Source: Eledone cirrhosa
Lineage: Eukaryota
DNA: 64,000 nucleotides
Assembly: GCA_964016885.1 (NCBI GenBank)
Contig: OZ024740.1
Span: forward strand, 143,344,001 to 143,408,000
Direction: 5' to 3'
In this document: piece after piece, positions 1-64,000 of the stretch
Layout of the letters: every line of letters begins with the position of its first letter
Position numbering within the stretch: position 1 is the stretch's first letter
Position numbers and translations under genes: made by a program
Notes under the pieces: model-generated
Seen by the model: the letters and a program-made list of their open reading frames with translations, nothing else
Told to the model about the DNA's origin: nothing
The model's database searches: none

Positions 1-2190
1 ATTTTAACGTCTCCCACTTGGAAACTGAAGTGAGGGTGAGAAATTTTACAACCATCTGCGTGGATCATGTTGGCAGAAGAAAAGAACAAAACTACCATTT
101 CCTGCATGATTCTTTTATGGCTGATGAAAATAACATATTCTCCAATGGTTATTATGAATCAGTTTCTGTGCACAACAAAGCCAATGATTTGATTGTAGCT
201 TGGGCTCTATAAGCCTCCCCAAACACCTCTACCGTGCTTCAAAGAATGCCCCAACAGCATTAGGTGTTTTATCCAACAGTGTGATTCTGGGAGATTTGAT
301 AGGTGACTTCAATCTACCCTGTGTTGATTGGTCTACAAACAGTTGAAATCAGGTCCTTCTTCCTCAACCCCTAAGTAGTTTTTCCTGTCCTAACTTGTGC
401 TTGCACCAACAAGATATCACAAAAACATTTTAGATTTAGTATTTAGTAACCACACTAAAACTATCTGCATTATTGCAGTAGTAAAAGCTCTCCTCTCAGA
501 CCATGACATGGTACTTTGTAACTTGAGGTTCCACCAGCCAAAAGTTTAACCTGATGATTCTTTCCAGCCCACTTATGTAATAACATTGATCTTCATAATG
601 TAAACTGGTCTTTCACACACAGCCACCAACATCAAAACATGAATGATGACCTTCATCAATAACCAACAGACTGAGTCATTGACAAAATTAAACTCAAATC
701 CAAAATGTTCTTTCCATTTGCCAAAAATCACAAGACTGCTGTCACAACCATTGGGCTTCTGTTTGATGAAAATGGCACACTCCAAAAGAATGCTAAAAGC
801 ATGGGTGAAATACTGCAGAAAAAATACTGCTCTGGGCTGTATCAGTGATATTAACCCCCTACACACCATATCTGACATAACATTTGCTGCCCCTGATATC
901 TTAGTGACAATAAACAAAATTAAACACAACTCAACAATAGTCTCCGATAAGCTCCCTGCTACTGTCCTGAAGGTGTGTTGACACCAGCTTGCACCCCCTA
1001 TACCTAATGTATGGAAGAACTCGCTGGATGTAGCCTATTTCCCTGAAGATTTTGTATCCCAGTTTATCATCCCAGTTTTCAAAAAAGGATACAAGTTCTT
1101 TGCTGTAAATTACCATCTGATAAATAGCTCACTACCTTGAAAACAACACCCTACTGAACTCCAACTAGCATAGCAACATTTGAGTATGTGGAAAACTACT
1201 ATAGTGGATTAAGTGTTTCCTAACAGATCTCACTATGTTGTGATTGAAGGAACATGATCAAGCTCAACCAAAGTCTGAAGTAGTGTCCCACACGGCACTG
1301 TGTTGTGCCCACTTCTCTTCATTATTTATATCAATGACCCTTTTACGATCTGAGTTCAAATCCCGCCGAGGTTGACTTTGCCTTTCATCCTTACGGGGTC
1401 GATAAAATAAAGTACCAGTAATGCACTGGGTAATTGCTGGCCTTAGAAACAATTATTTATATCAATGACACAGTTGTCATCAAGTACAGCAAAATAAGAA
1501 TGTTCACAAATGATTCCAAGCTCCAGAAAGTCATTAACAGAGTGGGATACTGGGCATGCCTTCAATCAGATATGTTTGCTGTTATCCAATGTGTGAAAAA
1601 AAATAGTGTGCTACTAAACGAGGATAAATTTGAATTAATCCCCTTTAGAAAAGAGGATGCACTGAAGTTAACATATTATCTTCCCTCAGGTGAAATCCTC
1701 ATAGCATACAACACCAGAGACCTTGGTGTAAATGTTGATAGCAACTTAAGCTGGAATACTCACATAAACAACAATGTTGTCATGACCTGCGGGATGTGTT
1801 CCTGGATTCTCAGAATTTTCCATTCGAGAGATATCCATACCATCATCCTTCTCTTCTCTACTTTTGCCTGGCCCCACCTTAAATACTGTTGTCCATTGTG
1901 GTATCCTCACATGAAACAAAGTATTATGAAAATTGAAGTACCTCAAATGTAATTACAAAAGGAAAGATGGTTTGACTAGAAAAGCTCAAACTCTACTCTC
2001 TCCAATGCTGTCATAGCACTACCTTACCTTCATGATGTGGAAAATATTCCATCATCATTGCCCAGATGATGTTGGCATCACCTTTAAAATTCACATAGGG
2101 CTATCTGCCACTACAAAAATCAAACTCGCATCACATAACAACATTATAGTAGAATTATTTCACCTCAACTTGTCCAGCTCTCTTATTTAC
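1..2190 (+). mobile_element. Decayed CR1/L2-type LINE (APE + RT remnants)
   Basis: Fragmented motifs YKPPN, GDFNLP, LDLVFSN and SDH (endonuclease), and PLLFIIYIND, RDLGVNVDSNLSW and RPHLEY-like WPHLKYCCPLW (RT/C-terminus). Many stops and frameshifts. Confidence 0.85.
1339..1451 (+). mobile_element. tRNA-derived SINE (family A), 5'-truncated, inserted in the LINE
   Basis: B-box gagttcaaatccc and body gttgactttgcctttcatcc...gtcgataaaataaagtaccagt. Perfect 18-bp TSD attatttatatcaatgac at 1321-1338 and 1452-1469. Confidence 0.9.
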
Positions 2191-2329
2191 TATATATATA
2201 TACACACGTATATATATATATATATATATATATATCGCAAAGCCACTGCTTCGGCTACTACTCCTTCAGTTTAGACCTGGCTGTTTTCTGGTATGCTAAA
2301 TGGACTACAGAGTTGGAGAGTCTGAGCAC

Positions 2330-4331
2330 TCAATGACAATGTCAAAGATAAAGATAAATTCACCTCCCCCTGCCGGACGAGAATGCAAGGACTCCTCTTT
2401 ATTTCAGACATGGAAGATCAACATAATTCCGTCACCACTCCCTGTGCCCCCAACCCATCCCTTCCACCCACCAAGCAAAATCCAAAACTTCAGAGTTGGT
2501 ACCATGAACATTGAAAGGTCGCTCAAATGAGGTTGTAGAGATGCTTGAACGTAAGGAAGTTGATGTTTGTTGTATTCAAGAGACTAGGAGGAGGGGTCGG
2601 TCTGCCAGATTCATTGTGGGTAAAAAACAATGCTATAAACTTTTCTGGATGTGAAATGACAACGGGCTGGGGGAAGTAGGAATTATGTTAGCAGAAAAAT
2701 GGGTAGATAAGGTAATTGCCGTAAATAGAGTGAACGATAGAATAATTAAAATAAGACTAGTCCTAAATAGAACAACTGTGTTGATAATATCTGCTTATGC
2801 ATCTCAATCTGGCCTACCTGATGTTATAAAAGACAGATTCTATGAGTCGTTAATGCTCACTACCTCCCAAATAACCGACAGTGACTACATAATTATTGGT
2901 GGTGACCTTAATGGTCATGTTGGACAACATTGTGATGGCTATGATGGGATCCATGGAGGCTATGGGTTTGGTACTAGGAATGAGGACGGCTTCAGAATCC
3001 TGGAATTCTGTGACGCTAATAACCTAACTATCTGTAACACAAACTTCAAAAACCGAGACAATCACTTGATCACTTATAGATCAGGGGAACACACCAGTCA
3101 GATAGATTATATCCTTACTAGAAGACGTGACAGAGTGTCTGTTGTAAACACTAAGTCCCTCCCCTGTGAAGAATGCACCTCCCAACATAGCCTAGTAGTT
3201 AGTGATCTAATACTCAGGACTAGACGTACTCGATGACAGCGGAGGACTACCTTGGGGAGAAGAACATGGAAGCTGAAGGACCCTACAGCCAGTGACAAAT
3301 TTAAAAGCTTATTACTTGATGATTTTGACAGTAAGGAAGAGCAATTAGAGACGTACAATATAGAAGTACAGTAGGAATTCATGAAAGTTAACCTGCTGAA
3401 GGCGACAGACGAAATCTGTGGCTGGAGCAGACCTATAGGCAGGAGGAGAGTAACTTGGTGGTGGAACAGTAAAGTGGAGGAGACAATGAAGGCTAAAAAG
3501 CAGGCTTGGAAAGTATAGCAGGATGGGGGTAGTAGAGAACACTATCAAGTGTCCAGGAGAGAAGCTAGGAGACAAGTGTACCTTGCAAGAAGGGAAGCAG
3601 AGCATAGAACATTCAAGCATGTTCTACAAAACGAGGACCAAAAACATGAGGTGTTCAGGATTGCAAGACAATGTGTCAAGGAAAACCGTGATATTGTCGG
3701 GGAGAAGTGTGTCTGTAATGATGATGGTGTACTTGCCCTCACTGATACTGATAAGAAGGTAGCTTGGAAGTGTCACTACGGGAGACTACTAAATGAGGAG
3801 AATAAGTGGGAAAAAGATAGTCTGCCCCAAATCGATCCAATAGAGAGACCAGCGATGCAAGTTAAAGGTTGTATAATAAGTAAGGCAATCAAAGATATGA
3901 AGACAGGCAAGGTGGCTGGGCCTTCGGAGATAGTTGTTGAGATGTTGAAAGCATTTGGAATGATGGGACATACTATGGCCACCCGGATAATAAACCAAGT
4001 AATACAGAATGAGGTCATATAAAAAGACTGGCGTAGCAGCATCATCGTTAACTGTTACAAGAGTAAAGGAGATGATCTAGATAGGGGAAACTATAGAGGC
4101 CCCTCCAAACCTAACATACACCCCAACCCACTCCCACCAACACCACCCTTTCTCTATAAAGTTATGCTGGTACCACAACATCCAGTCCAAACTAATGAGA
4201 TCGTGTAGGTGTCACGACAAAAAAGCTCCCAGTCCACTCTGTAAATGCGGTTGGTGTTAGGAAGGGCATCCAGCCGTAGAAAACCTGCCAGATAGTCCTA
4301 TACAAGCGAGACATGGTCACCCGACCAATCT
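2330..4331 (+). mobile_element. RTE-clade LINE, internally deleted and decayed
   Basis: APE domain (VGTMN, SAYASQ, GGDLNGHVG, SQIDYIL) and linker up to NYRG, joined directly to the family 3' UTR (gttggtgttaggaagggcatccagcc). In-frame stops present. Confidence 0.92.
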
Positions 4332-4811
4332 TGCTGGACACCACCAGAGGGTGTTAGACGCTGGTGTTTGCATAGTTACGGCTTCCTAAATGTTTCCTGT
4401 AAACATACCGTGTTTCTTTAGAAATACGAAATTTCTATAAATATTTGCTTAAAGTTGTAAGCAAAATCCTATTTCTATTCTAGTTGAGCCAACTTATGCA
4501 GCTTCATATACAAATGAGATTAATCACCTCATTTACACAGATGAGAAAACTATATATTCTCGACTGTTCTCAAGTCCAGCAGTTGCAAGCGGTGGGAGGG
4601 ACCATCCTGACGAAGGCCAGTCAAGCCTGAAATGCATAGACGGTTGTCCTCCTTGCTTCTGCTGGACACCACCAGAGGGCGTTAGCATCCAGTGTTTGCA
4701 TAGCTATGGCTTCCTAAATGTTTCCTGTAAACATGCCGTGTTTCTTTATAAATATAAAATTTCTATACATATTTGTATAAAGCTATGCTTGAAGCAAAAT
4801 CCTATTTCTAT
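4332..4811 (+). mobile_element. Retrozyme/Penelope-pLTR-like partial tandem repeat (~328-bp period)
   Basis: ~150-bp direct repeats at 4332-4477 and 4660-4811 (tgctggacaccaccagaggg...gcaaaatcctatttctat) flank a hammerhead motif. Confidence 0.75.
4595..4652 (+). ncRNA. Type I hammerhead ribozyme
   Basis: ggaggg-accatc CTGACGA aggc-cagtcaa-gcct GAAA tgca TA gacggt-tgt-cctcc. The core is intact, stem II has 4 bp, stem III is the palindrome atgcat and stem I is extended. Confidence 0.85.
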
Positions 4812-4902
4812 ATATATATATATACATAGATATAGATATCGATATATATAATAATATAATTATTATAAAGAATGAGGAATCACAATTTATTAACATATTA
4901 CA

Positions 4903-5202
4903 TGGCGGCACATGGCTTAGTGGTTAGAGCATTGGCTTTGCAATCGAAAGGTTGTGAGTTCAATTCTCAGACCGGGTGATGTGTTGTTTCCTTGAGCAAG
5001 ACACTTTATTTCACATTGCTCCAGTTTACTCACTGCAAAAGTGGTTGTGGAGGTGCCACGGCAAAAAAGCACCCAGCACTCACTGCAAATGAGGTTGGTG
5101 TTAAGAAGGGCATCCAACTGTAGAAATCAAGCCAGAATCAGTTCCCGTCCCACCCTTGCAAGCAGGGAAAAGTGGACGTAAAATGATGATGATGATGATG
5201 AT
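4903..5202 (+). mobile_element. tRNA-derived SINE (family B) with RTE-derived 3' tail
   Basis: A-box tggcttagtgg, B-box gagttcaattc, tail cccacccttgcaagcagggaaaagtggacgtaaa(atg)n. Confidence 0.88.
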
Positions 5203-5276
5203 TACATATGTTTCTCCATCGATCAGCTCGAGACAAGATCTGTTATAGATCGAACCCGACTCTGCATTCGAAGGGT

Positions 5277-5307
5277 CTATATATATATATATGAGTGTGT
5301 GTGTATG

Positions 5308-5341
<34 letters not shown>

Positions 5342-5345
5342 TATA

Positions 5346-5395
<50 letters not shown>

Positions 5396-5448
5396 AATAT
5401 ATATGTATATATATATACACACATATATATATGTATATATATATAAAA

Positions 5449-5511
<63 letters not shown>

Positions 5512-5592
5512 TATATGTATATATATATACACACATATATATATGTATATATATAAAAAATATATAAAAATATATATATATATATATATATA
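5277..5592. repeat. Compound (TA)n/(CA)n microsatellite
   Basis: Seen directly. It is the source of the spurious YI-rich ORFs. Confidence 0.97.
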
Positions 5593-6021
5593 GTAATAAT
5601 AATAAATTTGAAGACTAAAATCCAAAGAGGGCTCGATAAGAATAAATATATATCAAATATATAAGAACCGTAGAGCAAATATTTATTAAAATAACAGATT
5701 AAAGTTTAAGCAAAGAATCGCTGCTTTCACCCTTAACGGGATCTTCTGAAACTAAAAAAATCAATCTGTGAACGCAGAAGTAAATATTTCGAAAAACGTT
5801 GCAACCGAAAGAAGACAGGAAGACGATACTTTGATTCGTGGAAACGTTCCCTGCCAAAGAACGTAAAAAAACGAAGATAATTCGTCCTAATTTGGAGCGG
5901 TGAAAACAATTACGTGGTATTGTTTTTGCGTGTAATTGTTTTCAAAGCTCCAAATAATGACGTATTATCTTCGTTTTTTTACGTTCTTTGCCAGGGAACG
6001 TTTCCACGAACCAAAGAATTG

Positions 6022-6620
6022 ACGATGGTTGCTGGACACTACGGCTTAATACGGGATGTTTGTTTACAAACACACCGAGCATTATAATAAATGTTCGGTG
6101 AATCCATACGTACATATATATATGTGTGCATGTATGTATATATATATACATACTACTGTACGTCTGTATACATATATGTATGTACGTGTACATACTTATA
6201 TTTAAGTAACAGCCGTACTAAGAGTGGGAAATGAGATTTCGTTTCATTTTTCCCGTTTATCGTTTTCGGTGCACCCGGCCGATTAACCCACTCGATATGC
6301 AAATTGGGCTACTCAGCCGTTAATATGCATAAGGTAAGTATATACGTTCAGCAATCTGGCAGGAAGGTATACGTTGCTGACGATAGCTAATAAGCTTGAA
6401 ACTAGTACAGCGTTCCTTTGTCAGTGTTGAACAAACGAGCAACGATGGTTGCTGGACACTACGGCTTAATACGGGATGTTTGTTTACAAACACACCGAGC
6501 ATTATAATAAATGTTCGGTGAATCCATATGTACATATTTATATGTGTGCATGTATGTATATATATATACATACTACTGTACGTCTGTATACATATATGTA
6601 TGTACGTGTACATACTTATA
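6022..6620 (+). repeat. ~180-bp direct repeat pair (6022-6200, 6442-6620)
   Basis: acgatggttgctggacactacggc...catacttata occurs twice and is near-identical. Each copy has the hairpin caccgagcatt-ataata-aatgttcggtg. Confidence 0.92.
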
Positions 6621-6949
6621 CATATTTGTTATGTTATACTGTAACTCTTTGCTCTAAAGATGGCGTCAGACTCTCTACCGATACTGCCATTCCACCACCA
6701 CAGTTTATATTTGTTATTTAAGCATTTGTAAAGTTATTTGTGTATATATTTAAAACATATTTGCTATGTTATTCTATCGTAAATTTATTTATATGCTTTG
6801 TATATATTATGTGTTTATATTTTCATTTTAATGTTATTTATACAATTGTGAAGAAATATTACACCAAAAAGTGAAAATAGGAAAGTTAGGCGCAAGTAGT
6901 ATCTCCTGCTGCGAAAACAATTCATAGTGCATCAGATTTAAATTCCAAG

Positions 6950-9900
6950 CAGTCAGGAGAACGGTTGTCTCTAACCGGAGATTGTAAGACGGGTGTCGGC
7001 GAAAGTCTCAATGAGGAAGCCGACATCCTGAGGACCAGAATTCTGTCTGCAAAAACAACCACACGTATTGGATATTGGAACATAAGAACTATGTACCAAC
7101 CATCCAAACTTGCACAAGTTATCGGAGAAATAGAGGCCTACACAATTAACATCCTGGGCCTCAGCGAGGTCCGCTGGACTGACTCTGGGAAGTTTGTCCA
7201 TGAAAACAAGACCATCCTGTTCTCAGGCCGTCAGAACGGGACCCACCGAGATGGAGTTGCAATCATCATGGACAGGGCTGCCAGCGGTGCCCTTGAGGAG
7301 TGAACTCCTATCAACGAACGCCTAATGACAGCAAGATTCACCACATCACATGCAAAGGTCACCATAGCTCAGTGCTATGCTCCAACCAACGAACATAACG
7401 ATGATGACAAGGACGCTTTCTACCAGCAACTACAAGATGTTGTAAACAAAACCCCACGTCATGACATCCTGATCATCATGGGAGACATGAACGCACAGAT
7501 CGGGGGAAGCAGGGTTGGCTTTGAACATGTCCTTGGCCCCCATGCTTATGGAAACCGCACGGACAACGGGGACAGGTTTGTCCAGTTCTGTGCCATGAAC
7601 AATATGAAAATCGGCTCGTCACTATTTGACCACAAGAACACCCACAGGTCACATGGGCTTCGAACGACCACAGGACCAAGACGCAAATAGACCACATTGC
7701 GATTGGCCCAAGTTGGAGAGCTCCTTGCCTGCAGGACGTCCGAGTCTACCGGGGCGCAGATGTCTGCAGTGACCACTATCTGTCTGTTACCAAACTTAAA
7801 ATCAGACTGAGGAAGCAGAAAAAGAGAGCACTCACTACAAGGCGTTTTGACACTACCAAGCTGAAGAACGGTGACACAGAGGCACAGTTCGAGGCTGCTT
7901 TGAGGAACAGATTTGCTGTCCTTGAGGAGTCTGCACCAGGATCGGTCAATTGGTGGGAGGAAATGAAGAAGACCATGGAAGCTGCAGGGGAAGAAATCCT
8001 GGGCTACAGGAAGTCCCTCAGAGAAGCTTGGGTCAGCGACAACACCTGGCAGCTGATTAATGAAAGGAAAACCCTACATCAGCAGAGGCATGCCACTACC
8101 CCAGAGGCCATCAAGGTATATCAGCAGTATGTTGACAAGGACAAGGAGGTGAAACGCAGCGCACAAAAGGACAAACGCATGTGGATTGAGGGTAAGGCGG
8201 GGGAGGCGGAAGCAGCTGCGGCACGCAATGACATGCGCTCTGTGTACCAAATTGCCAAGAAAATCACCGGCAGCTCTAGAGCTAACTCAGGCCCGGTGAA
8301 AGCGAAAGATGGTACGCTGCTTTCCAAGGGTGAAGAAAAGTTAGACAGATGGGCTGAACATTTCAAGGAAGTCCTCAACCGACCGGAGCCACGTGTGCCA
8401 GCAGACACTAAGGAACCTACTAGTTTGTTGCCTATCAATACTGATGACTTCACCGAGAAGGAAGTCCGCATGGCCATAAAAACCCTTAAGAATAACAAGT
8501 CACCAGGTATGGATGGCATTTCTGCTGAAATGCTGAAGTCAGGAGGCGAAAGCATGGTCAAGTGGATGGGCCACTTATGTAATCTTGTGTGGAACACGGG
8601 TGAAGTCCCAGCAGATTGGAGAAACGGAGCGGTTGTCTGTATCCCCAAGAAGGGCAACCTTGCCGATTGTGACAACTGGAGGGGAGTGACACTTCTCTCC
8701 ATACCAGGGAAGGTCTATTGTCTGATGATCCTGAACCGCATACGTGGCATGGTAGACCGGGAACTGCGAGAACAACAGGAAGGGTTCCGACCAAAACGTT
8801 CCTGTGCAGAGCAGATCTTTACCTTACGCCGCATCATTGAGAGGTACAACGAATTCCAGAGGCCCCTCGCCGTCAGCTTCATCGATTTCTCCAAAGCATT
8901 CGATAGCTCTCATCGGCCGTCACTCTGGAGCACCATGCATGAGTATGGTCTGCTCCAGAAAGTCATTTCGGCAATCAAACAGATTTACGCAGACTCCAAG
9001 TGCTGCATACGGACAGAGGATGGTTACAGTGACTGGTTTGAGGTGGTTACTGGTGTGCGTCAGGGTTGCTCGCTCTCTCCAATTCTCTTTGCCATAGCCA
9101 TTGACTGGGTACTAAGAAGAGCGTCTAAAGACCAGGGTATATCTTGGGTGGGAGAGCAAAAGTTGTCTGACCTGGACTTTGCGGACGATATTGTTGGACT
9201 TGCAGAGAGCACAGCTGACCTGCAAATCATTATGAACAATATCAATGTCGAAGCAGGAAGCTTAGGTCTCAATATCAGTGCTAAGAAGACCAAAAGCATG
9301 TTATCTGGGACACACCCATCACCAACTGGTGTTTTCATTGAACAGGGGGGGGGGGGAGATAGTGGACAACTTCACCTACCTAGGAAGCTCCATTGACAAT
9401 GGGGGCGCCATGGACAGTGAATTGCAGTGTAGAATGGGAAAGGCTTCAGCAGCATTTAACCAGCTTGTCAAGATCTGGAAGAGCAGGAAGTTCACCCTCA
9501 AAACAAAGATGAGATTCTACAACAGCAACGTGCTGTCCACACTCTTGTACGGAAGTGAAACATGGCACCTTAAGACCAGCCAAGAGAAGAAGTTGGACGC
9601 ATTCGATTCCAGGTGTCTGCAAAAGATCCTGGGGATTAAATGGAGTGACCATGTAACAAACCAGGAAGTCAGGAACCGCACCAACCAGCAGCTGGTCTCT
9701 TCTGCCATCTGCAAGCGACGCCTGGGCTGGTTTGGACACGCTTTGAGACTTCCCCCGGAGAGACTGGCGAACCAAGTACTTAAATGGAACCCACAGGGAA
9801 GCAGACGGAGAGGGCGACCCAAAATGAACTGGCGCCAGACAGTTGAAAGGGACCTGCGAGCGACAAACAGACAATGGCGGGACGCTGTGCAACTGGCTGC

Positions 9901-9990
9901 TGACCGAACGCGGTGGAACACTATGATTGCCTCATGTGTCGCAAGACGCGGGAGCTTCTGAGTCAGAGTCTGAGAGAGAGAGAGAGAGGG
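6950..9990 (+). mobile_element. Near full-length young RTE LINE (APE-RT), disrupted
   Basis: IGYWNIRTM, YAPTN, MGDMNA, QIDHI, KSPGMDGI, NWRGVTLLS, FIDFSKAFDS, GVRQGCSLSP, LDFADDI, RRRGRPK. One stop (7301-7303) and frameshifts near 7640 and in the poly-G at ~9345-9356. Ends in a repetitive gagt/ga tail. Confidence 0.95.
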
Positions 9991-10279
9991 GGATGATTGC
10001 GACGCAAACGAGTAAGTAATCCAATTCGTTTAACTCTTTTGGCTATATAAAACTAAATATATACATACGTAAACATGTCTTATGTCCGTATTTCTTGCAG
10101 TAATGTTGACTTTCGTGCCTCTTGTAACAAGTGAACGGTTTACTTGTGTTGAATCGTATTTTCTTTCGTTTTCATTTTATATTTTTATATCCTGGATATA
10201 TTTTTTATCCTGGATGCTGCGATTAGGACGAGAGCCATAGCTTCCGCAGCAGAGCGGAGTAAGACCCTCAAATACTCTG

Positions 10280-17045: not shown

Positions 17046-17649
17046 TTTAGGCCAGTGCATAAATATGCGCTGACGCATACATACGCATCATACATAGATA
17101 TATGCACACACAAATATACTTATATGAGCAGCCAGTTTGAACAGAAAAAGATGAGAGAATTCTGGTCAGATATGGCTGGTTTATGCTAGTGTGGAAGATA
17201 GACGTTAAACGATGATGATGATGATGATATATATATAATATACTTACATATACACACATATATACATGCACACATACACATATACAGATACACACATACA
17301 TATACCTACATGTATAGGCCTAAAAACATATATATATATACACACATACACAAATTCACATATGTACATACATACATATGCATATATACATATAACACAT
17401 ACACATACATATATATATATACATGCATATATACACATATTCATATACATACATACACATGACTGCTATTTAATACCCTCTGCTAGTTTTAAGTAGAATA
17501 TCTTGTTTGAAAGAAGACTATGTAAAAAAATAAAGAAAATCATATGAGCTGTATGGATGTCTTTATTGGAATTATAACTCTCCTAAAACACAGAGTGAGT
17601 TTCTAGAGAATGCATCTCTTGTTTTCTGACACTTCCATATATATAGGTG

Positions 17650-18725
17650 AGCTATGAGGCCCTCTTACCAGCACTTTCCCTTCCACCCACACACGTCAGC
17701 CACCCACCCCTGATGCCGCTTGGTGCCCCACACCCCATCCCCCATCCCTCCAAGCTGACACCTGCTGCACTTGCAGCACCACTAACAAACGAAAGAGGGG
17801 CCGGAACTGTTTGGGGTGCGGCTGCTTCCACCACCTCACCTGTGTTGGCTTGACTCGTCGAACTTCCAATGCCCTCGCAGCGTGGAGGTGCAGGAGCTGC
17901 CCTTCCCCACGACTTCCCAGCCACGGCCGTCTGGCACACCACCACATGGGACATGGAGCTTGCCTGACGCCCGAGCCTCGCTGGTCAACTTCGCTCGGCT
18001 CAGGCGGTTCCGGAAGATCACACTCAGGATCCCGAGAGCGGCACAGGTGCCGGTAGCTGATGCCCTCGCTTCCTCAATTGAGAGCGCCCTGGACTCCAAT
18101 CGAGCCAGTGACTGGGAGCGGCTGTTCTATTTCACCCCACTTGCCTTCGGCCTCCCCAGCTCTGGCGCTGAATGGGGCGGCCGGTCAACAGCAGCCTTCG
18201 TCAAGGCAATATCAAACACCCTGGGCCACCCACTGATCTCAGACCCATACCCCCACCCGACTCCCACTTGCTCCTTGTGGCTTCTGATGCAGGCATCAGG
18301 TCCTTCCCAGCTAGCAGCTGTGGAAGTGAGGATGGTCTCCGACCAGGCCACCTCAAGGAGTTCACATCCCCCCTCTCCGCTGAGGCCGGGTGCCGCCTTC
18401 TGAGTGCAATTGTGGCGCTCACCAATAGGCTCATCCATGGTGCCCTGGACTCTTACGCCCGAGGCCTCTTTTTTGGGGCCAGCCTCACCGCTCTCAGGAA
18501 GAAAGAGGGTGGCATACGCCCCATTGCTGTGGGCAATGTCTTCCGGAGGCTGGCTGCCAAGGTGATCTGCAAGTCCGTAACACACAAACTGGGTGTCGGC
18601 ATGTCCGGTGGCTGTGAGGGGGCCGCTCATGCAACCAGGCAGTTCTTCAACAGCTGCCGCTTGGAACCGGCATCCAGGGACTCCAGGCACCTCATTGTCA
18701 AGCTTGACATGAGGAGAATCTTTGC
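17650..18725 (+). mobile_element. CRE-like non-LTR element 5' part (PHD-like finger + RT N-terminus)
   Basis: GC-rich. CGCFHHLTCVGL...WRCRSC, GGIRPIAVGNVFRRLAAK, LGVG.SGGCEGAAHA, VKLDM. Frameshifted. Confidence 0.8.
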
Positions 18726-20279
18726 CGTTGAATGATGATTTTTTGAGTTGTACAGGTTTTACTTGTAAAGTATACTTTGTTTGAAGTTTTACATGATAAA
18801 AATATAGGTTGATGCTGAAGTAGTTGTGTTTTTTGTTGTTTTCTTAATGTTATATATACATATCACAATGTCCACAATAGCTTATACAGCAAACTATTTC
18901 TCACATAATCCATATCCATAATTCTAAAGTTTAAAAAGCTAGAATAAAAAGGTGCATTATATATGAATACATACAGTAATGTACAAAAGTAGCTAAAAAG
19001 TATAAAACACTTATTATTATGCTAATTGTTTTTCAGCATTTCTGCTAACCTTTTCAAGCATTTACTACCAATTTTTAGCATGCCTGAAAGGTTTTTTCCA
19101 GCATTTTCATTCAAGCTGGTTGACATCTTATGTATGTGTGTGTGTGTTCTGAATGATTTATTATTAAGGATAAATTCCAACACTGTTTTAGAAAGGTGTT
19201 ATAATTAAATGCAGTCTTGTCAAAAATCATGTCACAGGATTTCCTATAAATAGCTTCAACACTGTGATCATTTCGGTACAGTATACCCCAAAAGATTCCA
19301 TGTTGTTTGTGCAAACCCCAGTATCAGGGTTTACGAAATAATGCAAATGGTTAACCGTTTCAAAGATCAGCCATGTTTACCTGTGAGTGTCCAAGCTATA
19401 ATTATCTGGCCAACTTTGGTTATGTAGCAAAATTATCCAGATGAGAGTTTAGAGTCTTCACTGTTTTGTCAGGTTTGTTATATTGGCCTATCAGAACATA
19501 GTACCCTGTAAGCAATTTTTTGGCTATTTAAGAGAATGCACAGCTGCCTTGCCACCTTTCCCTTCACTTGTATCCATGAGGAAGCTATCTCTTGCTTAAT
19601 TTCTCCTTCAACAGAATAACTTTTACTGGTTCGAAAACATGTGACAAAGGGAAAGGAAGAGAGCCACCCACCCATGGGTTCACTTCTCTGAAGCACAAGC
19701 CTCAGCAGGGGGTTTTGTAGAAGACCAGCAGTTACCCATGCATGCAAGTCTACCCTCTATATGATACCAATGTTGTCAAAGGCAGAGGCTGGTTACAGCT
19801 TGACACTAGTGTTGTCATTTTTCCAGCTAAGTTAACTGGGGCAACATAAAATAAAATGCCTTGTTTGAGGACACTATGCTGTCTGGTTCAGGAATTGAAC
19901 TAATCCACATTCTTCACAAGTTTTAGAAGCGTGTGATAACAAGTCAACTAAACACGGCAAATCTTACTGCCGAATTGTTGATTTGAGAAATGTAATGTGT
20001 TCAGTTCATTTTCATGTCGTCTCTACATGTTTCTTGGTCCATTTACCTATCAGTATTTAAACTGTTATTAATCTGTTATATGTTTGTATCACTTAGAATA
20101 TAATCTTTTCAATATTATCGATAAATCTGTCGGACCCTCAAAAATAATCTTCTCGTATTTAAACTCCTATTATTTGTTATACGCTCGTTTAACTTTTCAA
20201 TAATAAATTTGAATCTGTCAGACCTTTATAAAAATAATCTTCTCGTAAACTTTCCCATTTCTCCCCCCCCCCCCCTTCT

Positions 20280-44759: not shown

Positions 44760-44764
<5 letters not shown>

Positions 44765-45972: not shown

Positions 45973-47805
45973 ATATATATAATGTGTATGTAGGTACACA
46001 TTCTTAGTAGACAAGCCAGTATATTATATACACTCAACCTTAAATATCTTGTCGTTTAAGTGAAGTTTTGCTGAATTTTTGTGACAACACTGGTGTTATA
46101 TACATTGTTAAAAACAACTCTTGTATGTCTAAAAGATAAAGTCAAATTATCACAAAAGATACATTCCCTCTAGTACAGAGCCATCCACATGTAGTAGGAA
46201 TACCCAGTTGGAAATCTATGGTACACTGACTTTCATAGGTGGTTTATTTTCATTGAAGTGCATCTTCCCCCTTTAAATCAATGATAATTTCAATTAGATA
46301 GTGTTTATAATTTTCAAAAAAACAAATTAGTAAAAAGGAGACAAAGAAAAAATAAGAGGTGCCAAATTATCCATTTTGCAGGACTAAGCAATAATTTACT
46401 TGAAGGAGATGAAGAATTTAGACACAAAGCCAGAAATTCTGGGAAAAGGGAAACTTAATTCAAAACAGCCCCAGTAATTGACTGATACTATATTTTATCA
46501 ACCTCTGAAAGATTTGAACTTGGAATGTAAAGAGCGAGAACAAATAATGGTTTCTTTATTTATTTATTTATTTATTGTTTAATAATGCAAAGCATTTTGT
46601 CTGATGCGCTAATGATTCTGTCAATGTACTGTCTTAGCTATAAAGATGTTATAATGTGTATAAATAATAGAATTATGTCCCTCTTTAAGAAAACAAGAAT
46701 AGTATAAAAGTAAAAACCCAATTTATATAATAAATATGATTTTCAAAAGAAACAAATCAATAAAAATCAGTCAATGAAAAATAACAGAAAGCACACTTAA
46801 TGACAAACTACAACATAAAATGCTGGTATTGCCCTCTAAAAATGTTTGAGGCAAGCCAAGACAGCATTACTGAGAGTGATAGTGAGGCTAAGATGCTGGA
46901 ATAGCCAAGTGTCCTTATGAACATCATCTGATAATTAACTGTCAACGGCCCAGCTTCCCTTAACATTCTCAAATGTTACAAGCTAAAAATGTCATTCACT
47001 GATAAATCACAGTATTTCAGTAATTCATTCTGTTTATGAAAAGATATAACAACATTAGAAGATATTTCCTTGTGACTTTTATGAACAGTATAATACTTTT
47101 CAAATTGAAATGGTTGATATGTTATATTTGAAAACCCAGAGTCGACAGTTACATGTGATATAAAGAAAATTAAAGATTTAATGAACATAAGTAATTTGAA
47201 ATTGCTAATCAATATTAATTCTATTCTCCACCACAATCTGAAGTCAGTGATTAATCAGATTGTAATAATACATGTCTATGTATTTAGTTTTGTTTTAGAT
47301 CTTTTATCTAAAAATATTTTAATATATCTTTTGTAGTAACTTGTGTTTGGGTGACACTTCATCTGTAGTAAGACTATCCAAGCAGTTAAATATTTAATAA
47401 CTTTTGAGAGAGAAACACTTTAGAAATGTTTACCAGTATTATTAGGCTTCCATTAGCAGAAACTAACTTTTCTATATAATCATACATAATAGTTTAGAGA
47501 ATGATCTAAAATAAGCTTATTGATTTATCTCATTGTTTAATCACTAATTTCAAATTTTGTAGCTTTGGTTAGATGTTCTACATATTAAATGATAATATAA
47601 TAATTTAAGAGTAAACCAGATTTATTAAAATTACAGGTTACTAAAATTTATTCTAAAAGAGTGATGCAGTAAAAATTAATGATTCAGAGCCTCACAGCTG
47701 AGATGACAAAAGGTTGAGGAAATGTGGTGATATCATTTAAGACAGATATGTCTAACTAATACTATTGATGTAGTCATTCTTCTGTAGTAATACAGACATG
47801 TGTAG

Positions 47806-48342
<537 letters not shown>

Positions 48343-50439: not shown

Positions 50440-50830
50440 AGCCTTCTCTATGTATGCATAAATCTAATTATGTGATTTATATGAGAGAATGATTTACCAC
50501 AGATGTCAGTGATGTGGCTTCTCTCCTGTATGAATGCATTTGTGAGTAACAAGAATGATCCCCCACAGATATCAACAATATGGTTCCTCACCTGTATGAA
50601 TACGCCTACGATTAGTTAAGTGACCAGTTTCAGAGAATGATTCCTTACAGATATCACAGTGATATGTATTTCCTCCTGTATGAATACATTTGTGTTATTA
50701 TTTATTTTAAAGAATGATTTACCACAGATTTCACTGATATAATTTCTCATTTGTATGAATATGTTTGTGTTTAAACAGGTTACTTTTTCAGAGACGTATG
50801 TTTTATAAATATAACATTGGCATGATGATT
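50440..50830 (-). pseudogene. Second, more decayed C2H2 zinc-finger pseudogene
   Basis: Repeated HTGEKP/ICGKSF remnants with frameshifts. Its upstream flank (50822-51150) is homologous to 48272-48600. Confidence 0.82.
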
Positions 50831-51419
50831 TTCCTATCTCTATCGGTATGTCTTCTGAAAAGAAACAATCCTTTAAGTTTCTCATTGAATTAATTTTCAT
50901 ATAATTTCCTTTTCCTACCACAACATTTGGATGTTTTTCTTGTTTTCTTTTTTATATATTCCTACAGTGATGGAAATATGTTTATGAATTGTGTTCTTTG
51001 TCGGTATCTGAAGATGTTTGCAAACTACTTTGTAAATCTATCACAGTTCAATTAAAATGCAAAATCATTTTGAACTGTAAGAAAAGAAATGTTGCTTTTA
51101 ACCTCAGTTTAGAAAAATATTTCACAGTATTTCTACTAGAGATTTATATACCTGTCGTGTATAGCATCTTCTTAAAGTCTTCACAAGATGGTATGTATTA
51201 ATAATTTCAGAATTTTGAACTTCTCAGAGGAAATGAGCAATGAGTGCAACAAGTGGTGAGATGTTTTGGAGAGGAGAAACCAAAGCCATGGAAGCATGGA
51301 AAAGCAGACTTAAAAATGATGACAATATATACATGATTGGTTCCATTGTATGGCACCTGGGGGAGGTATCTCCTACTATAACTCCACGATGACCAATGCT
51401 TTGAGAGTAAATTTGCTAG

Positions 51420-55365: not shown

Positions 55366-55394
55366 TCAGAATACAATCATTCATGATACTCGGT

Positions 55395-57470
55395 CTCTAG
55401 ATGTGCTAGAAATAACGGCTACATCAGCTAAGCAGGGGGAACATCAGGTCTATATGTGTGCTAGAAATAGCAGCTAAAAGGGGGGGGGCGTTATGGTGGT
55501 CCGTAGGTGTGCTAAAAATAGCAGCTACATAAGCTAAATAGAATGTACCTCATTGTGGACGATAGGTGTGCTCCAAATAGCAGCTAAATAGGAGGAACCT
55601 TATGGTTGTCCATAGGTGTGCTAGAAATAGCAGCTAAATAGGGGGAACCTCATTGTTGTCCATAAGTATGCTAGAAATAGCAGCTAAATAGGGGGGGGGG
55701 CTTATGATGGTCCGTAGGTGTGCTAAAAATAGCAGCTACATAAGCTAAATAGAATGAACCTCATGGTGGATGATAGGTGTGCTCCAAATAGCAGCTAAAT
55801 AGCCTTATGGTTGTCCATAGGTGTGCTCGAAATAGCAGCTAAGTAGGGGGACCCATATGGTGGTCCATAGGTATGCTAGACATAACAGCTAAAAAAACTT
55901 CATGGTGGTCCAAGTGTGTGCTAGAAATAGCAGCTGCATCAGCTAAAAAAGGGAATCTAATGGTGGTCTATAGGTGTACTAGAAATAGCAGTTAAATAGG
56001 GGGATCATTATAGTGGTATATAGGTGTGCTACAAATAGCACCTAAATAGGGGGAACCTCATGGTGGTCAATAGGTGTGCTAGAAACAGTAGGTAAATAGC
56101 GGAACCTCATGGGAGTACATAGGTGTGCTAGAAATAGCAGCTGCATCAGCTAAACAAGGGAATCTCATGGTTATCCAAAGGTGTACTAGAAATAACAGCT
56201 AAATAAAGGGAACTTCATGGTGAACTGTGTCCTAGATATATTAACTAAATACGGGGAACCTCATGGTGTTCCATATGTGTGCTAGAAATAGCAGCTATAT
56301 AGGGGAACCACATGGTGATCCATAGGTGTGCTAGAAATAGAAGCTGTATCACGTAAACAGGGGGAATCACGTGGTAGTCCATAGTTGTGCTAGAAATAGC
56401 ATCTAAGTAAAGGGAACCCATGGTGGTCTATAGGTGTTCTAGAAATAGCAGCTAAATTAGGGGAACCTCATAGTGGTCCATAGTTGTGCTAGAAATAGTA
56501 GCTAAATAGAGGGAACCTTATAGTGGTCTATAGCTGTGATAGAAATAGTAGTTAAATAAGAGGAACCTTATGGTGGTTCTTAGGTGTGCTAAAAAGGGCT
56601 GTTACATCAGCTAAGCAGGAGGAACCTTATGGTGTATGTAGGTGTGCTAGAAGGAGTAGCTAAATAAAGAGAACCTCATGGTGATTCATAGGTGTGCTAG
56701 AAATAGCAGCAAAATAGGGGGATCCTTATGGTGGCCCATATGTGTGCTAGAAATAGCAGCTAAATACGGCGATCCTCATGTTGGGCCACACGTGTGCTAG
56801 AAATGGGAACTACACAGTGGTTCATAGGTGTGTTAGCAAAAGCATCTAAATTGTTGTAACCCTTTTAGTGGTCGATAGGTGTGCTAGAAATAGCAGCTGC
56901 GTCAGGTAAACAGGGGAATATCATGGTGGTCCATAGGCGTGCTAGAAATAGCATCTAAATTAAGGGAAACCCATGGTGGTCTATAGGTTTCCTAGAATTA
57001 GCAACTAAAAAGGGGGAACTTCATGGTGGTCCATAGGTATGTTAGAAATAGCAGCTAAATAGGAGGAACCTTATAGTGGACCATAGATGTGCTAGAAATA
57101 GCATCTACATCAGCTAAACAGGGGCAACGTCATGGTGTCCATAGCTGTGCTAGAAATAGCAGCTAAATAAGGTCAACCTCATATGTATCCATTTGTTGTG
57201 CTAGAAATAGCAGCTAATAGGGGGAACCTCATAGTGGTACCTATGTGTGCTACAAATAGTAGCTAAATAGGAGGGACCTTATAGTGGTCCATATCTGTGC
57301 TAGAAATAGCAGCTTGATGGAGAGGAACCTGATGATGGTCCATGGGTGTACTAGAAATAGCAGCTACATCAGCTAAGCAGGTGGAACTTAATGGTTGTCC
57401 GTAGGTGTGCTAGAAATAGCGGCAAAATAAAGTGAACCTCGTGGTGGTCCATAGGTGTCCATAGGTGTCT
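55395..57470 (+). repeat. Satellite of ~40 monomers (50-bp and 59-bp variants)
   Basis: Consensus gtgctagaaatagcagct[gcatcagct]aaatagggggaacctcatggtggtccataggt. Confidence 0.95.
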
Positions 57471-57559
57471 CTTCTTTGTCAATTTTGTTATACTATACCA
57501 TAGGGGAGTAATTAACAAATCAATTTAAGATCTATATATCTATAAACAAGTATAGACAT

Positions 57560-58925: not shown

Positions 58926-59200
58926 TGACAAGACAGGAGCCTCCCAAAAGTCAGCTTGAAGGTAACACAGAGGAGACTGAGGTTAACTGGACATGCTCAG
59001 AGTTGACACTGCACTCAATGGTCCTGTGGGAGCCCCTACATGAACACACTAGAAGAGGGAAACCAAGGATGACATGTATTGATACCTTAAGGACAGACAC
59101 TGGTCTCTGGGAGACACAGGCCATGGAAGCGATGATGAAGAACAGAGACCGCTGGAGAGAACTCGTACATGGATCTCGGGAATTTTACCTGCCCTAGATA
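58926..59200 (+). mobile_element. RTE-type LINE 3' end fragment
   Basis: VLWEP.H..TRRGKPR..CIDTLRTDTGL...MKNRDRWR, followed by a (taga) tail. Confidence 0.7.
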
Positions 59201-59257
59201 GATATATATGCATATATATATGTGTGTGTGTGTAATTATGTGTTTTATATCAAATAA

Positions 59258-59448
59258 TAATTGTTTCTACTTTTGGCACAAGGCCAGCAATTACCTAGTG
59301 TATTACTGGTACTTTATTTTATCGACCCCATAAGGATGAAAGGCAAAGTTAACCTCGGCGGGATTTGAACTCAGAATGGCAAGGGCCGTAACTCTATGCA
59401 TCAAAGCATGGCATCTGACCCTCTACTGATACTGCCAATCCACCGCCC
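59258..59448 (-). mobile_element. SINE family A copy (full length)
   Basis: tRNA head plus body, flanked by the tatcaaataataat duplication. Confidence 0.88.
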
Positions 59449-59899
59449 TATTATTATCAAATAATAATAATATTCGATTTGTTTGCAAGCAGACAGTCTC
59501 ATTATGCTATGTTTAGTTTTTAATGGCCATCATCATCCGTTCAACAGCAGCATTGAAGAACAATCAACAGCTTTCTGGGTAATTGTTCTTCATCAGGACT
59601 GTACTTCTCTGCTACTCGTTTGAACTGTTGAAAATATATGGTATTTTCTAAAGTATACATTGGCTGATTAGCCTCATTTGCATAACAACTGATTTTACAG
59701 CTGGGCTTGCCGAAAAACAAAATTAGAATTTGATTTTCTGCTCTAACATAGCAGATTACATAAATGTAATTATGGATTTTATATTGAATATTAATAATAA
59801 GGTCAGCCGTAGAATTGCTTGGTATGCACTATTCTTGTCATTAACCAACAAACCTAATACAGGGCCCTCGAAACAGTCAAATCCAGCTGCTTCATTAGC

Positions 59900-62222
59900 C
59901 TCAATATATTTTTACTTAATACACAAAGTGTCAGCCTTTTCATCAATGCAGAAAAATGGAAGATCCAATTCTTTGAGGTTTGGGTTACCAACCATCCACA
60001 CCATATCCCTTTCTTCATCCTAACTGAGACCCATTTTAACGTCTCCCACTTGGAAACTGAAGTGAGGGTGAGAAATTTTACAACCATCTGCGTGGATCAT
60101 GTTGGCAGAAGAAAAAAACAAAACTACCATTTCCTGCATGATTCTTTTATGGCTGATGAAAATAACATATTCTCCAATGGTTATTATGAATCAGTTTCTG
60201 TGCACAACAAAGCCAATGATTTGATTGTAGCTTGGGCTCTATAAGCCTCCCCAAACACCTCTACCGTGCTTCAAAGAATGCCTCAACAGCATTAGGTGTT
60301 TTATCCAACAGTGTGATTCTGGGGGATTTGATAGGTGACTTCAATCTACCCTGTGTTGATTGGTCTACAAACAGTTGAAATCAGGTCCTTCTTCCTCAAC
60401 CCCTAAGTAGTTTTTCCTGTCCTAACTTGTGCTTGCACCAACAAGATATCACAAAAACATTTTAGATTTAGTATTTAGTAACCACACTAAAACTATCCGC
60501 ATTATTGCAGTAGTAAAAGCTCTCCTCTCAGACCATGACATGGTACTTTGTAACTTGAGGTTCCACCAGCCAAAAGTTTAACCTGATGATTCTTTCCAGC
60601 CCACTTATGTAATAACATTGATCATCATAATGTAAACTGGTCTTTCACACACAGCCACCAACATCAAAACATGAATGATGACCTTCATCAATAACCAACA
60701 GACTGAGTCATTGACAAAATTAAACTCAAATCCAAAATGTTCTTTCCATTTGCCAAAAATCACAAGACTGCTGTCACAACCATTGGGCTTCTGTTTGATG
60801 AAAATGGCACACTCCAAAAGAATGCTAAAAGCATGGGTGAAATACTGCAGAAAAAATACTGCTCTGGGCTGTATCAGTGATATTAACCCCCTACACACCA
60901 TATCTGACATAACATTTGCTGCCCCTGATATCTTAGTGACAATAAACAAAATTAAACACAACTCAACAATAGTCTCCGATAAGCTCCCTGCTACTGTCCT
61001 GAAGGTGTGTTGACACCAGCTTGCACCCCCTATACCTAATGTATGGAAGAACTCGCTGGATGTAGCCTATTTCCCTGAAGATTTTGTATCCCAGTTTATC
61101 ATCCCAGTTTTCAAAAAAGGATACAAGTTCTTTGCTGTAAATTACCATCTGATAAATAGCTCACTACCTTGAAAACAACACCCTACTGAACTCCAACTAG
61201 CATAGCAACATTTGAGTATGTGGAAAACTACTATAGTGGATTAAGTGTTTCCTAACAGATCTCACTATGTTGTGATTGAAGGAACATGATCAAGCTCAAC
61301 CAAAGTCTGAAGTAGTGTCCCACACGGCACTGTGTTGTGCCCACTTCTCTTCATTATTTATATCAATGACCCTTTTACGATCTGAGTTCAAATCCCGCCG
61401 AGGTTGACTTTGCCTTTCATCCTTACGGGGTCGATAAAATAAAGTACCAGTAATGCACTGGGTAATTGCTGGCCTTAGAAACAATTATTTATATCAATGA
61501 CACAGTTGTCATCAAGTACAGCAAAATAAGAATGTTCACAAATGATTCCAAGCTCCAGAAAGTCATTAACAGAGTGGGATACTGGGCATGCCTTCAATCA
61601 GATATGTTTGCTGTTATCCAATGTGTGAAAAAAAATAGTGTGCTACTAAACGAGGATAAATTTAAATTAATCCCCTTTAGAAAAGAGGATGCACTGAAGT
61701 TAACATATTATCTTCCCTCAGGTGAAATCCTCATAGCATACAACACCAGAGACCTTGGTGTAAATGTTGATAGCAACTTAAGCTGGAATACTCACATAAA
61801 CAACAATGTTGTCATGACCTGCGGGATGTGTTCCTGGATTCTCAGAATTTTCCATTCGAGAGATATCCATACCATCATCCTTCTCTTCTCTACTTTTGCC
61901 TGGCCCCACCTTAAATACTGTTGTCCATTGTGGTATCCTCACATGAAACAAAGTATTATGAAAATTGAAGTACCTCAAATGTAATTACAAAAGGAAAGAT
62001 GGTTTGACTAGAAAAGCTCAAACTCTACTCTCTCCAATGCTGTCATAGCACTACCTTACCTTCATGATGTGGAAAATATTCCATCATCATTGCCCAGATG
62101 ATGTTGGCATCACCTTTAAAATTCACATAGGGCTATCTGCCACTACAAAAATCAAACTCGCATCACATAACAACATTATAGTAGAATTATTTCACCTCAA
62201 CTTGTCCAGCTCTCTTATTTAC
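59900..62222 (+). mobile_element. CR1/L2-type LINE remnant (duplicate of 1-2190, with its 5' part)
   Basis: LTETH endonuclease motif at ~60020, then the same sequence as copy A, including the SINE at 61371-61483. Confidence 0.85.
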
Positions 62223-64000
62223 TATATATATATACACACGTATATATATATATATATATATATATATCGCAAAGCCACTGCTTCGGCTACTACTCCTTCA
62301 GTTTAGACCTGGCTGTTTTCTGGTATGCTAAATGGACTACAGAGTTGGAGAGTCTGAGCACTCAATGACAATGTCAAAGATAAAGATAAATTCACCTCCC
62401 CCTGCCGGACGAGAATGCAAGGACTCCTCTTTATTTCAGACATGGAAGATCAACATAATTCCGTCACCACTCCCTGTGCCCCCAACCCATCCCTTCCACC
62501 CACCAAGCAAAATCCAAAACTTCAGAGTTGGTACCATGAACATTGAAAGGTCGCTCAAATGAGGTTGTAGAGATGCTTGAACGTAAGGAAGTTGATGTTT
62601 GTTGTATTCAAGAGACTAGGAGGAGGGGTCGGTCTGCCAGATTCATTGTGGGTAAAAAACAATGCTATAAACTTTTCTGGATGTGAAATGACAACGGGCT
62701 GGGGGAAGTAGGAATTATGTTAGCAGAAAAATGGGTAGATAAGGTAATTGCCGTAAATAGAGTGAACGATAGAATAATTAAAATAAGACTAGTTCTAAAT
62801 AGAACAACTGTGTTGATAATATCTGCTTATGCATCCCAATCTGGCCTACCTGATGTTATAAAAGACAGATTCTATGAGTCGCTAATGCTCACTACCTCCC
62901 AAATAACCGACAGTGACTACATAATTATTGGTGGTGACCTTAATGGTCATGTTGGACAACATTGTGATGGCTATGACGGGATCCATGGAGGCTATGGGTT
63001 TGGTACTAGGAATGAAGAAGGCTTCAGAATCCTGGAATTCTGTGATGCTAATAACCTAACTATCTGTAACACAAACTTCAAAAACCGAGACAATCACTTG
63101 ATCACTTATAGATCAGGGGAACACACCAGTCAGATAGATTATATCCTTACTAGAAGACGTGACAGAGTGTCTGTTGTAAACACTAAGTCCCTCCCCTGTG
63201 AAGAATGCACCTCCCAACATAGCCTAGTAGTTAGTGATCTAATACTCAGGACTAGACGTACTCGATGACAGCGGAGGACTACCTTGAGGAGAAGAACATG
63301 GAAGCTGAAGGACCCTACAGCCAGTGACAAATTTAAAAGCTTATTACTTGATGATTTTGACAGTAAGGAAGAGCAATTAGAGACGTACAATATAGAAGTA
63401 CAGTAGGAATTCATGAAAGTTAACCTGCTGAAGGCGACAGACGAAATCTGTGGCTGGAGCAGACCTATAGGCAGGAGGAGAGTAACTTGGTGGTGGAACA
63501 GTAAAGTGGAGGAGACAATGAAGGCTAAAAAGCAGGCTTGGAAAGTATAGCAGGATGGGGGTAGTAGAGAACACTATCAAGTGTCCAGGAGAGAAGCTAG
63601 GAGACAAGTGTACCTTGCAAGAAGGGAAGCAGAGCATAGAACGTTCAAGCATGTTCTACAAAACGAGGACCAAAAACATGAGGTGTTCAGGATTGCAAGA
63701 CAATGTGTCAAGGAAAACCGTGATATTATCGGGGAGAAGTGTGTCTGTAATGATGATGGTGTACTTGCCCTCACTGATACTGATAAGAAGGTAGCTTGGA
63801 AGTGTCACTACGGGAGACTACTAAATGAGGAGAATAAGTGGGAAAAAGATAGTCTGCCCCAAATCGATCCAATAGAGGGACCAGCGATGCAAGTTAAAGG
63901 TTGTATAATAAGTAAGGCAATCAAAGATATGAAGACAGGCAAGGTGGCTGGGCCTTCGGAGATAGTTGTTGAGATGTTGAAAGCATTTGGAATGATGGGA
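60033..64000 (+). repeat. Segmental direct repeat, copy B (runs to window end)
   Basis: Colinear with 1-3968. About 17 substitutions counted by eye. Confidence 0.98.
62362..64000 (+). mobile_element. RTE LINE (duplicate of 2330-3968)
   Basis: Same ORFs and same inactivating stops as copy A. Confidence 0.92.

Follow-up and report, generated by a model that had tools for sequence, protein, structure and literature searches.

What does a recent tandem duplication in an octopod genome multiply, and to what end? The question is raised by a 64,000-nucleotide stretch of the Eledone cirrhosa assembly (GCA_964016885.1, contig OZ024740.1; C1:143,344,001-143,408,000 of the 3.0-Gb genome, hereafter the window), for which an original prediction from the letters alone had proposed a 60,032-bp duplication carrying an immunoglobulin (Ig)-like gene, and a possible array of surface receptors. 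We identified a tandem array of intact copies of this gene on C1, and a second array of intact intronless copies on C2. Our best reading is that they form an octopod-restricted, non-canonical family of immunoglobulin superfamily (IgSF) surface proteins under diversifying selection, working in the manner of CEACAM/CD2-type or Alr proteins.

At an offset of 60,032, window positions 1-3968 (the end of unit U1 and the junction into U2) match 60033-64000 (the end of U2 and the junction into U3, continuing past the window as 1-7528), both on the forward strand, at 3951 of 3968 positions (99.57%), with 17 substitutions and no gaps; 14 offsets around this value gave just 26-30% identity. The (TA)n tract is of the same length in both copies (2191-2235 and 62223-62267), as the original prediction had noted along with about 17 substitutions and no indel, and the match passes through several dispersed repeats of unrelated kinds. 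Applied genome-wide, a 401-base probe over the Ig-like exon (26.7-27.1 kb) found nine copies on C1 at 99-100% identity and six on C2 at 68-76%. The C1 copies lie in nine head-to-tail units (U1 to U9, the gene inside the window being that of U2) that span 503 kb (C1:143,293,816-143,796,814); the 624 kb examined around the window contain no N, and the array has no gap. The homology thus reaches beyond the window and includes the gene, and the duplication is segmental rather than a transposition, as had been proposed: the units are head-to-tail, over 1 kb long, more than 90% identical and span unrelated elements, as is characteristic of tandem segmental duplications. The period of 60,032 bases is a real step, but one of several, since the distance between equivalent anchors ranges from 47,252 to 62,009 bases; over the 32,118 non-coding sites that all nine share, the units diverge by 0.09-0.69%, and they also differ by large indels, their likeness forming a mosaic. 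In the DNA run X1 the gene had a depth of 50-59 and smaller variant contigs had depths of 12 and 18; relative to one another, without a single-copy control, these values would agree with 2, 3 and 9 equal copies.

The units are joined in two ways: six junctions lie in a (TA)n tract near 5322, and at the two others position 869 meets left-flank sequence. The right end of the array (C1:143,796,814) breaks at the equivalent of 5322, placing one junction type within the (TA)n tract (5278-5592). A 600-bp element at the LINE-type junction (long interspersed element; window 6022-6620) has direct and inverted copies clustered in the left flank (C1:143,287,046-143,293,244), and this cluster is a likely substrate for the first duplication.

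Each unit carries one Ig-like gene, as predicted, and all nine copies retain an open frame of six coding exons with GT-AG splice sites. Seven encode 254 residues, and those of U9 (261) and U4 (268) are longer because of extra 7-residue stalk repeats. The exons of the window gene were recognised through the intronless C2 copies, and all lie on the forward strand: coding exon 1 (23539-23578) holds the start codon and signal peptide, exon 2 (25337-25378) the end of the signal peptide and the start of domain 1, exon 3 (26763-27011) Ig domain 1, exons 4 (29279-29376) and 5 (35083-35248) the first and second halves of Ig domain 2, and exon 6 (35703-35872) the Ser/Thr stalk, the glycosylphosphatidylinositol (GPI)-like signal and the stop codon. 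A putative 3' untranslated region (UTR) follows at 35873-36779, which the intronless copies carry at 86-88% identity. An antisense LINE fragment lies in the 3'-UTR (window 36400-37233), with an inverted copy just downstream (36863-37224), and the two could form double-stranded RNA in long transcripts. A genome search with a distant relative as query returned the same 15 places and none further.

The predicted product has the anatomy of a surface receptor, as had been anticipated: a signal peptide, two Ig-fold domains, a Ser/Thr-rich stalk and a GPI-like tail, with no cytoplasmic part. The stalk (14 of 28 residues Ser or Thr) contains one to three 7-residue repeats depending on the unit. It is followed by a putative GPI-attachment region, namely the small residues Asn228-Ser-Ala, a spacer of 7-8 residues and a 15-residue tail (mean hydropathy 2.56) with two residues beyond it, so that a GPI anchor at the cell surface is likely, and a very short transmembrane tail a possible alternative. 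We modelled the 178-residue ectodomain from an intronless copy, which shares 54% identity with domain 1 of the window, with AlphaFold and 33 alignment rows, obtaining a pLDDT (predicted local distance difference test) score of 87.8 and seven long strands per domain; a model from four rows reached just 29.6. Foldseek returned at least 500 matches at E≤0.001, led by Ig tandems, the best ectodomains being those of BTN3A1 (E 4.5e-9), CD200R (template modelling (TM) score 0.66), Rst/Neph1 (Neph1 TM 0.69) and PD-L1. Both domains are thus predicted by the model to have the IgSF fold. The Pfam Ig cut-off was missed throughout: exon 3 scored 16.9 bits against I-set, where 23.7 are required, none of the four intronless proteins passed, and the best relative reached 23.6. 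The ESM Atlas placed first an Ig-like cluster of 50 members, most of them molluscan (0.94), which we regard only as a lead.

We compared domain 1 with the hallmark residues of the V-set given in PMC9546547. Its cysteines are Cys60 and Cys64 alone, forming a CxxxC loop, and the V-set disulfide between strands B and F (Cys23, Cys104) is absent. Mapped by us onto the model strands, the C-strand Trp51, A'-B Gly33 and E-strand Leu81 are present, Trp51 and Leu81 being nearly invariant across the 33 rows; the places of the Arg-Asp salt bridge hold neither Arg nor Asp, Trp93 occupies the tyrosine corner, and the place of C'' is a single bridge residue. The residues that vary among the intronless copies concentrate at mature-chain positions 30-64 and 82-85.

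Variation among the nine C1 copies is concentrated in the coding sequence, as had been predicted, with 35 of 755 exonic sites variable against 82 of 10,599 in introns, and 405 of the 32,118 non-coding sites (12.6 per kb, with hotspots), making exons 4-6 times as variable as non-coding sequence. Three random exon-size windows of non-coding sequence together reached the 29 variable sites of the three Ig exons in 0.18% of draws (empirical p 0.0018), and in the introns just one site varies in the 150 bp flanking each Ig exon on either side. Counted by path averaging over multi-change codons, the Ig domains of the C1 array hold 29 nonsynonymous and 3 synonymous changes (p 0.016 with transition bias, 0.077 without). 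An excess confined to domain 1 was not supported in the C1 array, where both domains contribute, domain 2 more (17.5:1.5) than domain 1 (11.5:1.5), and neither is significant alone. A domain 1 excess was found in the separate intronless array, in which this domain holds 37 nonsynonymous and 2 synonymous changes (p 0.0007-0.0045; domain 2, 13:2, not significant), and the synonymous rate (0.028-0.034) equals the array's non-coding background (0.038). Between the arrays, domain 1 shows nonsynonymous divergence (dN) of 0.34-0.41 against synonymous divergence (dS) of 0.14-0.22, a ratio of about 1.7-2.8, in contrast to the conserved signal peptide (dN 0.05-0.08, dS 0.22-0.38). Fisher p is 0.002, 0.020 and 0.024 in the three of 12 pairs tested. 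Although their Ig domains have about 80 amino-acid changes, all 13 copies in the two intact arrays are free of stops and frameshifts.

A single branch, leading to U2, U3, U6 and U8, accounts for 8 exonic and 4 intronic sites (p 1e-7); this type is derived at four sites, and gained an N-x-T sequon by two changes. Hotspots of non-coding variation (20-42 sites per kb) were also seen at window 17061-17900, 20061-22900 and 59061-60000, apparently inside dispersed repeats.

The intact intronless copies number four, in 7.5-kb tandem units at C2:173,850,267-173,873,604, and encode 241-251 residues. In all four the exons directly abut, the 3'-UTR is carried along, and the location is a different chromosome from that of the parent, by which sequence features they are identified as processed retrogenes. 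The single C2 copy end that we inspected has no clear poly(A) or target-site duplication. Intact frames with dN above dS suggest that these copies are expressed, and a (GA)n tract of differing length that lies just 5' of the start in each, and comes from a repeat at the landing site, may act as their promoter. Two further processed copies, at C2:357,995,987 and C2:72,291,299-72,291,924, are broken and older than the intact ones. We rejected a first landing of the retrocopy beside its parent, as the shared flank (41927-42380) is a dispersed repeat with 1454 candidates. We also rejected the intronless copies as conversion donors of the exon variants, given their identity of about 75% and the scatter of these variants as single sites.

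Transcription of the C1 array was seen in the public run X4, which we took to be RNA from its splice joints, none of which was found in the DNA run X1. Exon depth in X4 is about 250-1180, against 5-15 for intron contigs, and its contigs hold the joints 25377>26762 (exons 2 and 3), 27010>29278 (exons 3 and 4), 35248>35703 (exons 5 and 6) and 35248>35787; at 35083 a loose end, which agrees with the end of exon 4, fits a joint of exon 4 to exon 5. The X4 transcripts derive mostly from U9, whose letters are found at 11 of 12 exonic positions taken from the best-supported X4 rows, four of them unique to U9; these rows record differences from the window, so that U2 scores zero by construction. No X4 contig carries the window's letter at the 11 tabulated sites, although contigs lose rare variants. 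At window 30470 and 33619, X4 has letters absent from all nine assembled units, and so holds another haplotype or individual. Runs X5 (another organism) and X6 (restriction-site-associated DNA sequencing) gave repeat-driven signal only.

The fourth joint defines a stalk-less form, at a depth of 480 against 559 for the long form. Its acceptor (35785-35787, forward strand) reads AG in U1, U4, U5, U7 and U9, and GG in the window copy; in these five units one base, silent in the long form, creates the AG, whose use deletes the 28-residue stalk in frame.

The units additionally differ at a putative promoter. A remnant at 6837-6900 (forward strand) is 94% like the sequence immediately 5' of the first exon in U1, U4 and U9, and is followed in the window by a broken non-LTR (long terminal repeat) retrotransposon with a reverse transcriptase domain (6901-9995, forward strand, 3,095 bp; RVT_1 E 9e-31), which contains a stop and frameshifts. 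This LINE separates promoter remnant and first exon in U2, U3, U5, U6, U7 and U8 (5.1 kb long in U3, 3.1 kb elsewhere), but not in U1, U4 and U9. The latter three carry a 7-mer at -31 ahead of the first exon, a word gone from the six LINE units, and a motif at -42, which we take to be TATA-like and ETS-like, respectively. The putative short 5'-UTR first exon itself (9996-10011, forward strand) ends in a GTAAGT donor and lies outside read coverage; two independent processed copies begin with a likeness of it, a match that has three mismatches and is weak alone, 16 of 100 shuffles being as good. From these features we infer both the first exon and an effect of the LINE on expression, and the dominance of U9 in X4 fits such an effect. 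An ATG at window 9993-9995 stands directly 5' of this exon, and in transcripts starting a few bases earlier would open a short out-of-frame upstream open reading frame overlapping the start (coding exons 1-2).

Other elements travel with the units as passengers. A relic of an LTR-type retroelement with protease and partial reverse transcriptase (23774-24961) is intronic, and two C2H2 zinc-finger relics lie at 47780-48280 and 50465-51150, all three on the reverse strand. The expectation of two zinc-finger relics per unit failed, as both are broken and occur in only six of the nine units, being missing from U1, U5 and U7. A degenerate satellite (window 55381-57458; 38 copies of about 50 bp) is present in every unit at varying length.

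To place the family we made an exhaustive protein library search, which gave 19 matches, with names looked up for 10 of them; in word-index protein searches nothing scored among 182 and 2704 candidates. Eighteen of the 19 are true homologues at 26-36% identity (E down to 2e-27), and the 19th, a bacterial-type Hsp70/beta-propeller protein, was dropped as a chance match. The named homologues include uncharacterised proteins of O. bimaculoides (LOC106868859, LOC106876057), O. sinensis (LOC115210431, LOC115232395, LOC115225115) and Argonauta (A. hians; GAB1602944.1, GAB1602345.1). The octopod homologues share the domain 1 motif (C-strand Trp, CxxxC, W-I-R and F-strand Trp), and several share a six-Cys domain 2, but they have one to four copies of domain 1 and many have transmembrane tails, unlike the present gene. 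In a tree with 13 relatives, the 13 intact genes of this genome form one branch (100/99), split into the two arrays. O. sinensis LOC115232395 has a cytoplasmic tail in which we read repeated tyrosine motifs, a hint that signalling and tail-less forms may be paired in the family. We found no paper on the family in the literature searched, from which subscription journals and supplements fell outside, and six locus names returned none.

Among known systems, the closest parallels are in anatomy and evolution. The Alr proteins of the Hydractinia allorecognition complex are likewise a clustered invertebrate IgSF family, missed by Pfam and alternatively spliced, whose domain 1 has an Ig fold but lacks the B-F cysteines (PMC9546547). 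The Alr family numbers 41 divergent genes for transmembrane proteins that have FN3-like parts and signalling tails, and extends over at least 11.8 Mb. In contrast, the present array consists of near-identical 56-kb units encoding two domains and no tail, accompanied by a retrogene array, and lacks the Alr layout of three Ig domains with an FN3-like part and a transmembrane tail with immunoreceptor tyrosine-based activation or inhibition motifs (ITAM/ITIM). Neither the library search nor a profile search of PDB sequences revealed Alr homology, and no cnidarian is among the named matches. In CEACAM/PSG and the CD2/CD58/CD48/SLAM proteins, as here, the N-terminal Ig domain lacks the canonical disulfide and precedes a C-type domain, and GPI forms occur in both groups; the Trp at the tyrosine corner and the CxxxC loop are peculiar to the present family. 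Species-specific duplication, conversion and selection on the N-domain are described for these vertebrate families in PMC2110893. Homology to CD2/SLAM or CEACAM was found neither among the 19 library matches nor in the profile search of PDB sequences, which gave two matches at E 0.13 and 0.22 (CD2 at 0.22), and the likeness, as an analogy, is one of anatomy and evolution, not of membership. The V+C ectodomains of butyrophilin, B7 and CD200R are the best structural matches (E 4.5e-9 to 3e-8, TM 0.57-0.69), but at 12-15% identity, with canonical disulfides there and shorter domains here. The proposed likeness to the cephalopod protocadherin and C2H2 expansions, which also arose by octopod tandem duplication on one chromosome, did not hold: these have another fold and comprise about 150 genes dated at 8-65 Ma in the passages of PMC9795677 that treat them, against units less than 0.7% apart here.

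We lean towards a protein that would bind a fast-changing outside partner, such as a surface protein of a pathogen or parasite, and so act as sensor or decoy. Gene conversion and unequal crossing-over, which we infer to have caused the C1 array, would multiply and homogenise its units, and selection, judged from the counts, would retain amino-acid variants of the Ig domains. By retroposition and a second round of amplification, the family also gave the four intact intronless genes, whose diversification is in domain 1. Output of the main array is likely tuned by the promoter LINE (six of nine units), the one-base stalk-less splice switch (five of nine) and the length of the stalk repeat (three lengths). 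As the protein has no cytoplasmic tail, signalling would need a partner, or the protein would be a decoy or an adhesion molecule. GPI forms, conversion and selection on the N-domain have precedents among immune IgSF families (PMC2110893). Several points weigh against this reading. The step to pathogens rests on analogy. In the C1 array pN/pS taken alone is borderline, and over the whole coding sequence, at 31:6, it is not significant (p 0.09-0.27); synonymous sites also vary above the intron rate (6 against 1.3-1.6 expected), which fits the retention of old alleles no less than new adaptive change. The counts moreover take no account of recombination, nor are the copies independent of one another. 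U2, U3, U6 and U8, the type with the most marked branch, all carry the promoter LINE, and the X4 contigs lack their letters at the listed sites, so that these copies may now be silent; either the LINE arrived later and spread, or the copies are still read somewhere. Finally, the six processed copies imply germ-line transcription, which also fits a gamete protein.

This last point leads to self/non-self or gamete recognition, in which the protein would be a polymorphic identity tag that binds like proteins or a host partner evolving along with it, as Alr or sperm-egg proteins do, with the array as a code of variants, a reading that we judge rather unlikely. The absence of the B-F disulfide from domain 1, the clustering and the splice variants parallel Alr (PMC9546547), the four intact and two broken processed copies need germ-line transcripts, and diversifying selection is seen at three time depths. 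The searches that found no Alr homology argue against it, as does the one dominant variant in X4 where a mix would be expected, with the proviso that contigs drop rare variants. A code for neural wiring, like those of Dpr/DIP, Dscam or the clustered protocadherins, had also been raised in the original prediction, but found no support here and appears the least plausible explanation of all. Dpr proteins have a two-Ig, GPI-anchored anatomy resembling that of this product, and Rst/Neph1 and sDscam are among the Foldseek matches, but these are generic Ig tandems at 12-14% identity; such codes are usually old and conserved, whereas here dN exceeds dS among copies less than 0.7% apart, and identity within the family is just 26-36% between octopods.

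Two further explanations concern the array itself. It could be in part an artefact in which two haplotypes (U1-U4 and U5-U9) were assembled end to end, which we hold to be improbable. The pairs U1-U5 (0.09%), U2-U6 (0.18%), U4-U9 (0.27%) and U3-U8 (0.40%) are close enough to be allelic, and a 67.9-kb block matches at 99.75%, but such pairing across the midpoint is equally expected from a higher-order duplication. The seam from U4 into U5 is the most divergent junction, with 12-21 differences per 2.5 kb from the five others of its type over three successive windows, which indicates that no sequence was re-used there. The promoter of U5 is the LINE type, rather than the left-flank promoter expected of a first unit, every unit has 5-35 private sites, and no N was found; even were the artefact real, at least four or five tandem copies would stay. 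A neutral segmental expansion, in which relaxed constraint, local hypermutation or conversion tracts produce the exon excess and most copies are becoming pseudogenes, is very improbable. It could draw on the interrupted promoters of six of the nine units, the non-coding hotspots inside the unit, which reach 42 sites per kb, and the synonymous excess of the main array. However, relaxation is unable to lift exons above introns, none of the 13 copies in the two arrays is broken, the excess ends at exon edges, and the signal peptide and tail are conserved. In the intronless array, where dN is well above dS and dS is at background, this explanation is largely refuted.

Beyond the preferred reading of a binder of outside partners, we tentatively raise a broader possibility: an undescribed octopod immune or self-recognition system, a non-canonical IgSF family composed of GPI-type decoys and tailed signalling members, and diversified in the germ line by four simultaneous routes. 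These would be segmental tandem amplification, retroposition with a second amplification, promoter switching by the LINE, which would determine the copy that is read, and the splice switch with repeat length, the last perhaps setting the distance of the binding domains from the membrane. Tandem clusters of Ig receptors under selection are already known; an octopod-restricted one with twin arrays, one of them of retrogenes, is new.

Expansions of neural genes are well known in cephalopods, and in the literature searched we found no polymorphic Ig receptor cluster described in this group. The present locus is a concrete candidate, with intact, positively selected copies that are expressed, as judged from X4 taken as RNA, and it offers built-in comparisons between an intron-bearing and a retrogene array, between promoters with and without the LINE, and between long and stalk-less forms. 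If the protein binds microbes, it would be an octopod counterpart of the CEACAM-type arms-race receptors; if it binds itself, it would bear on how octopuses discriminate self from non-self.

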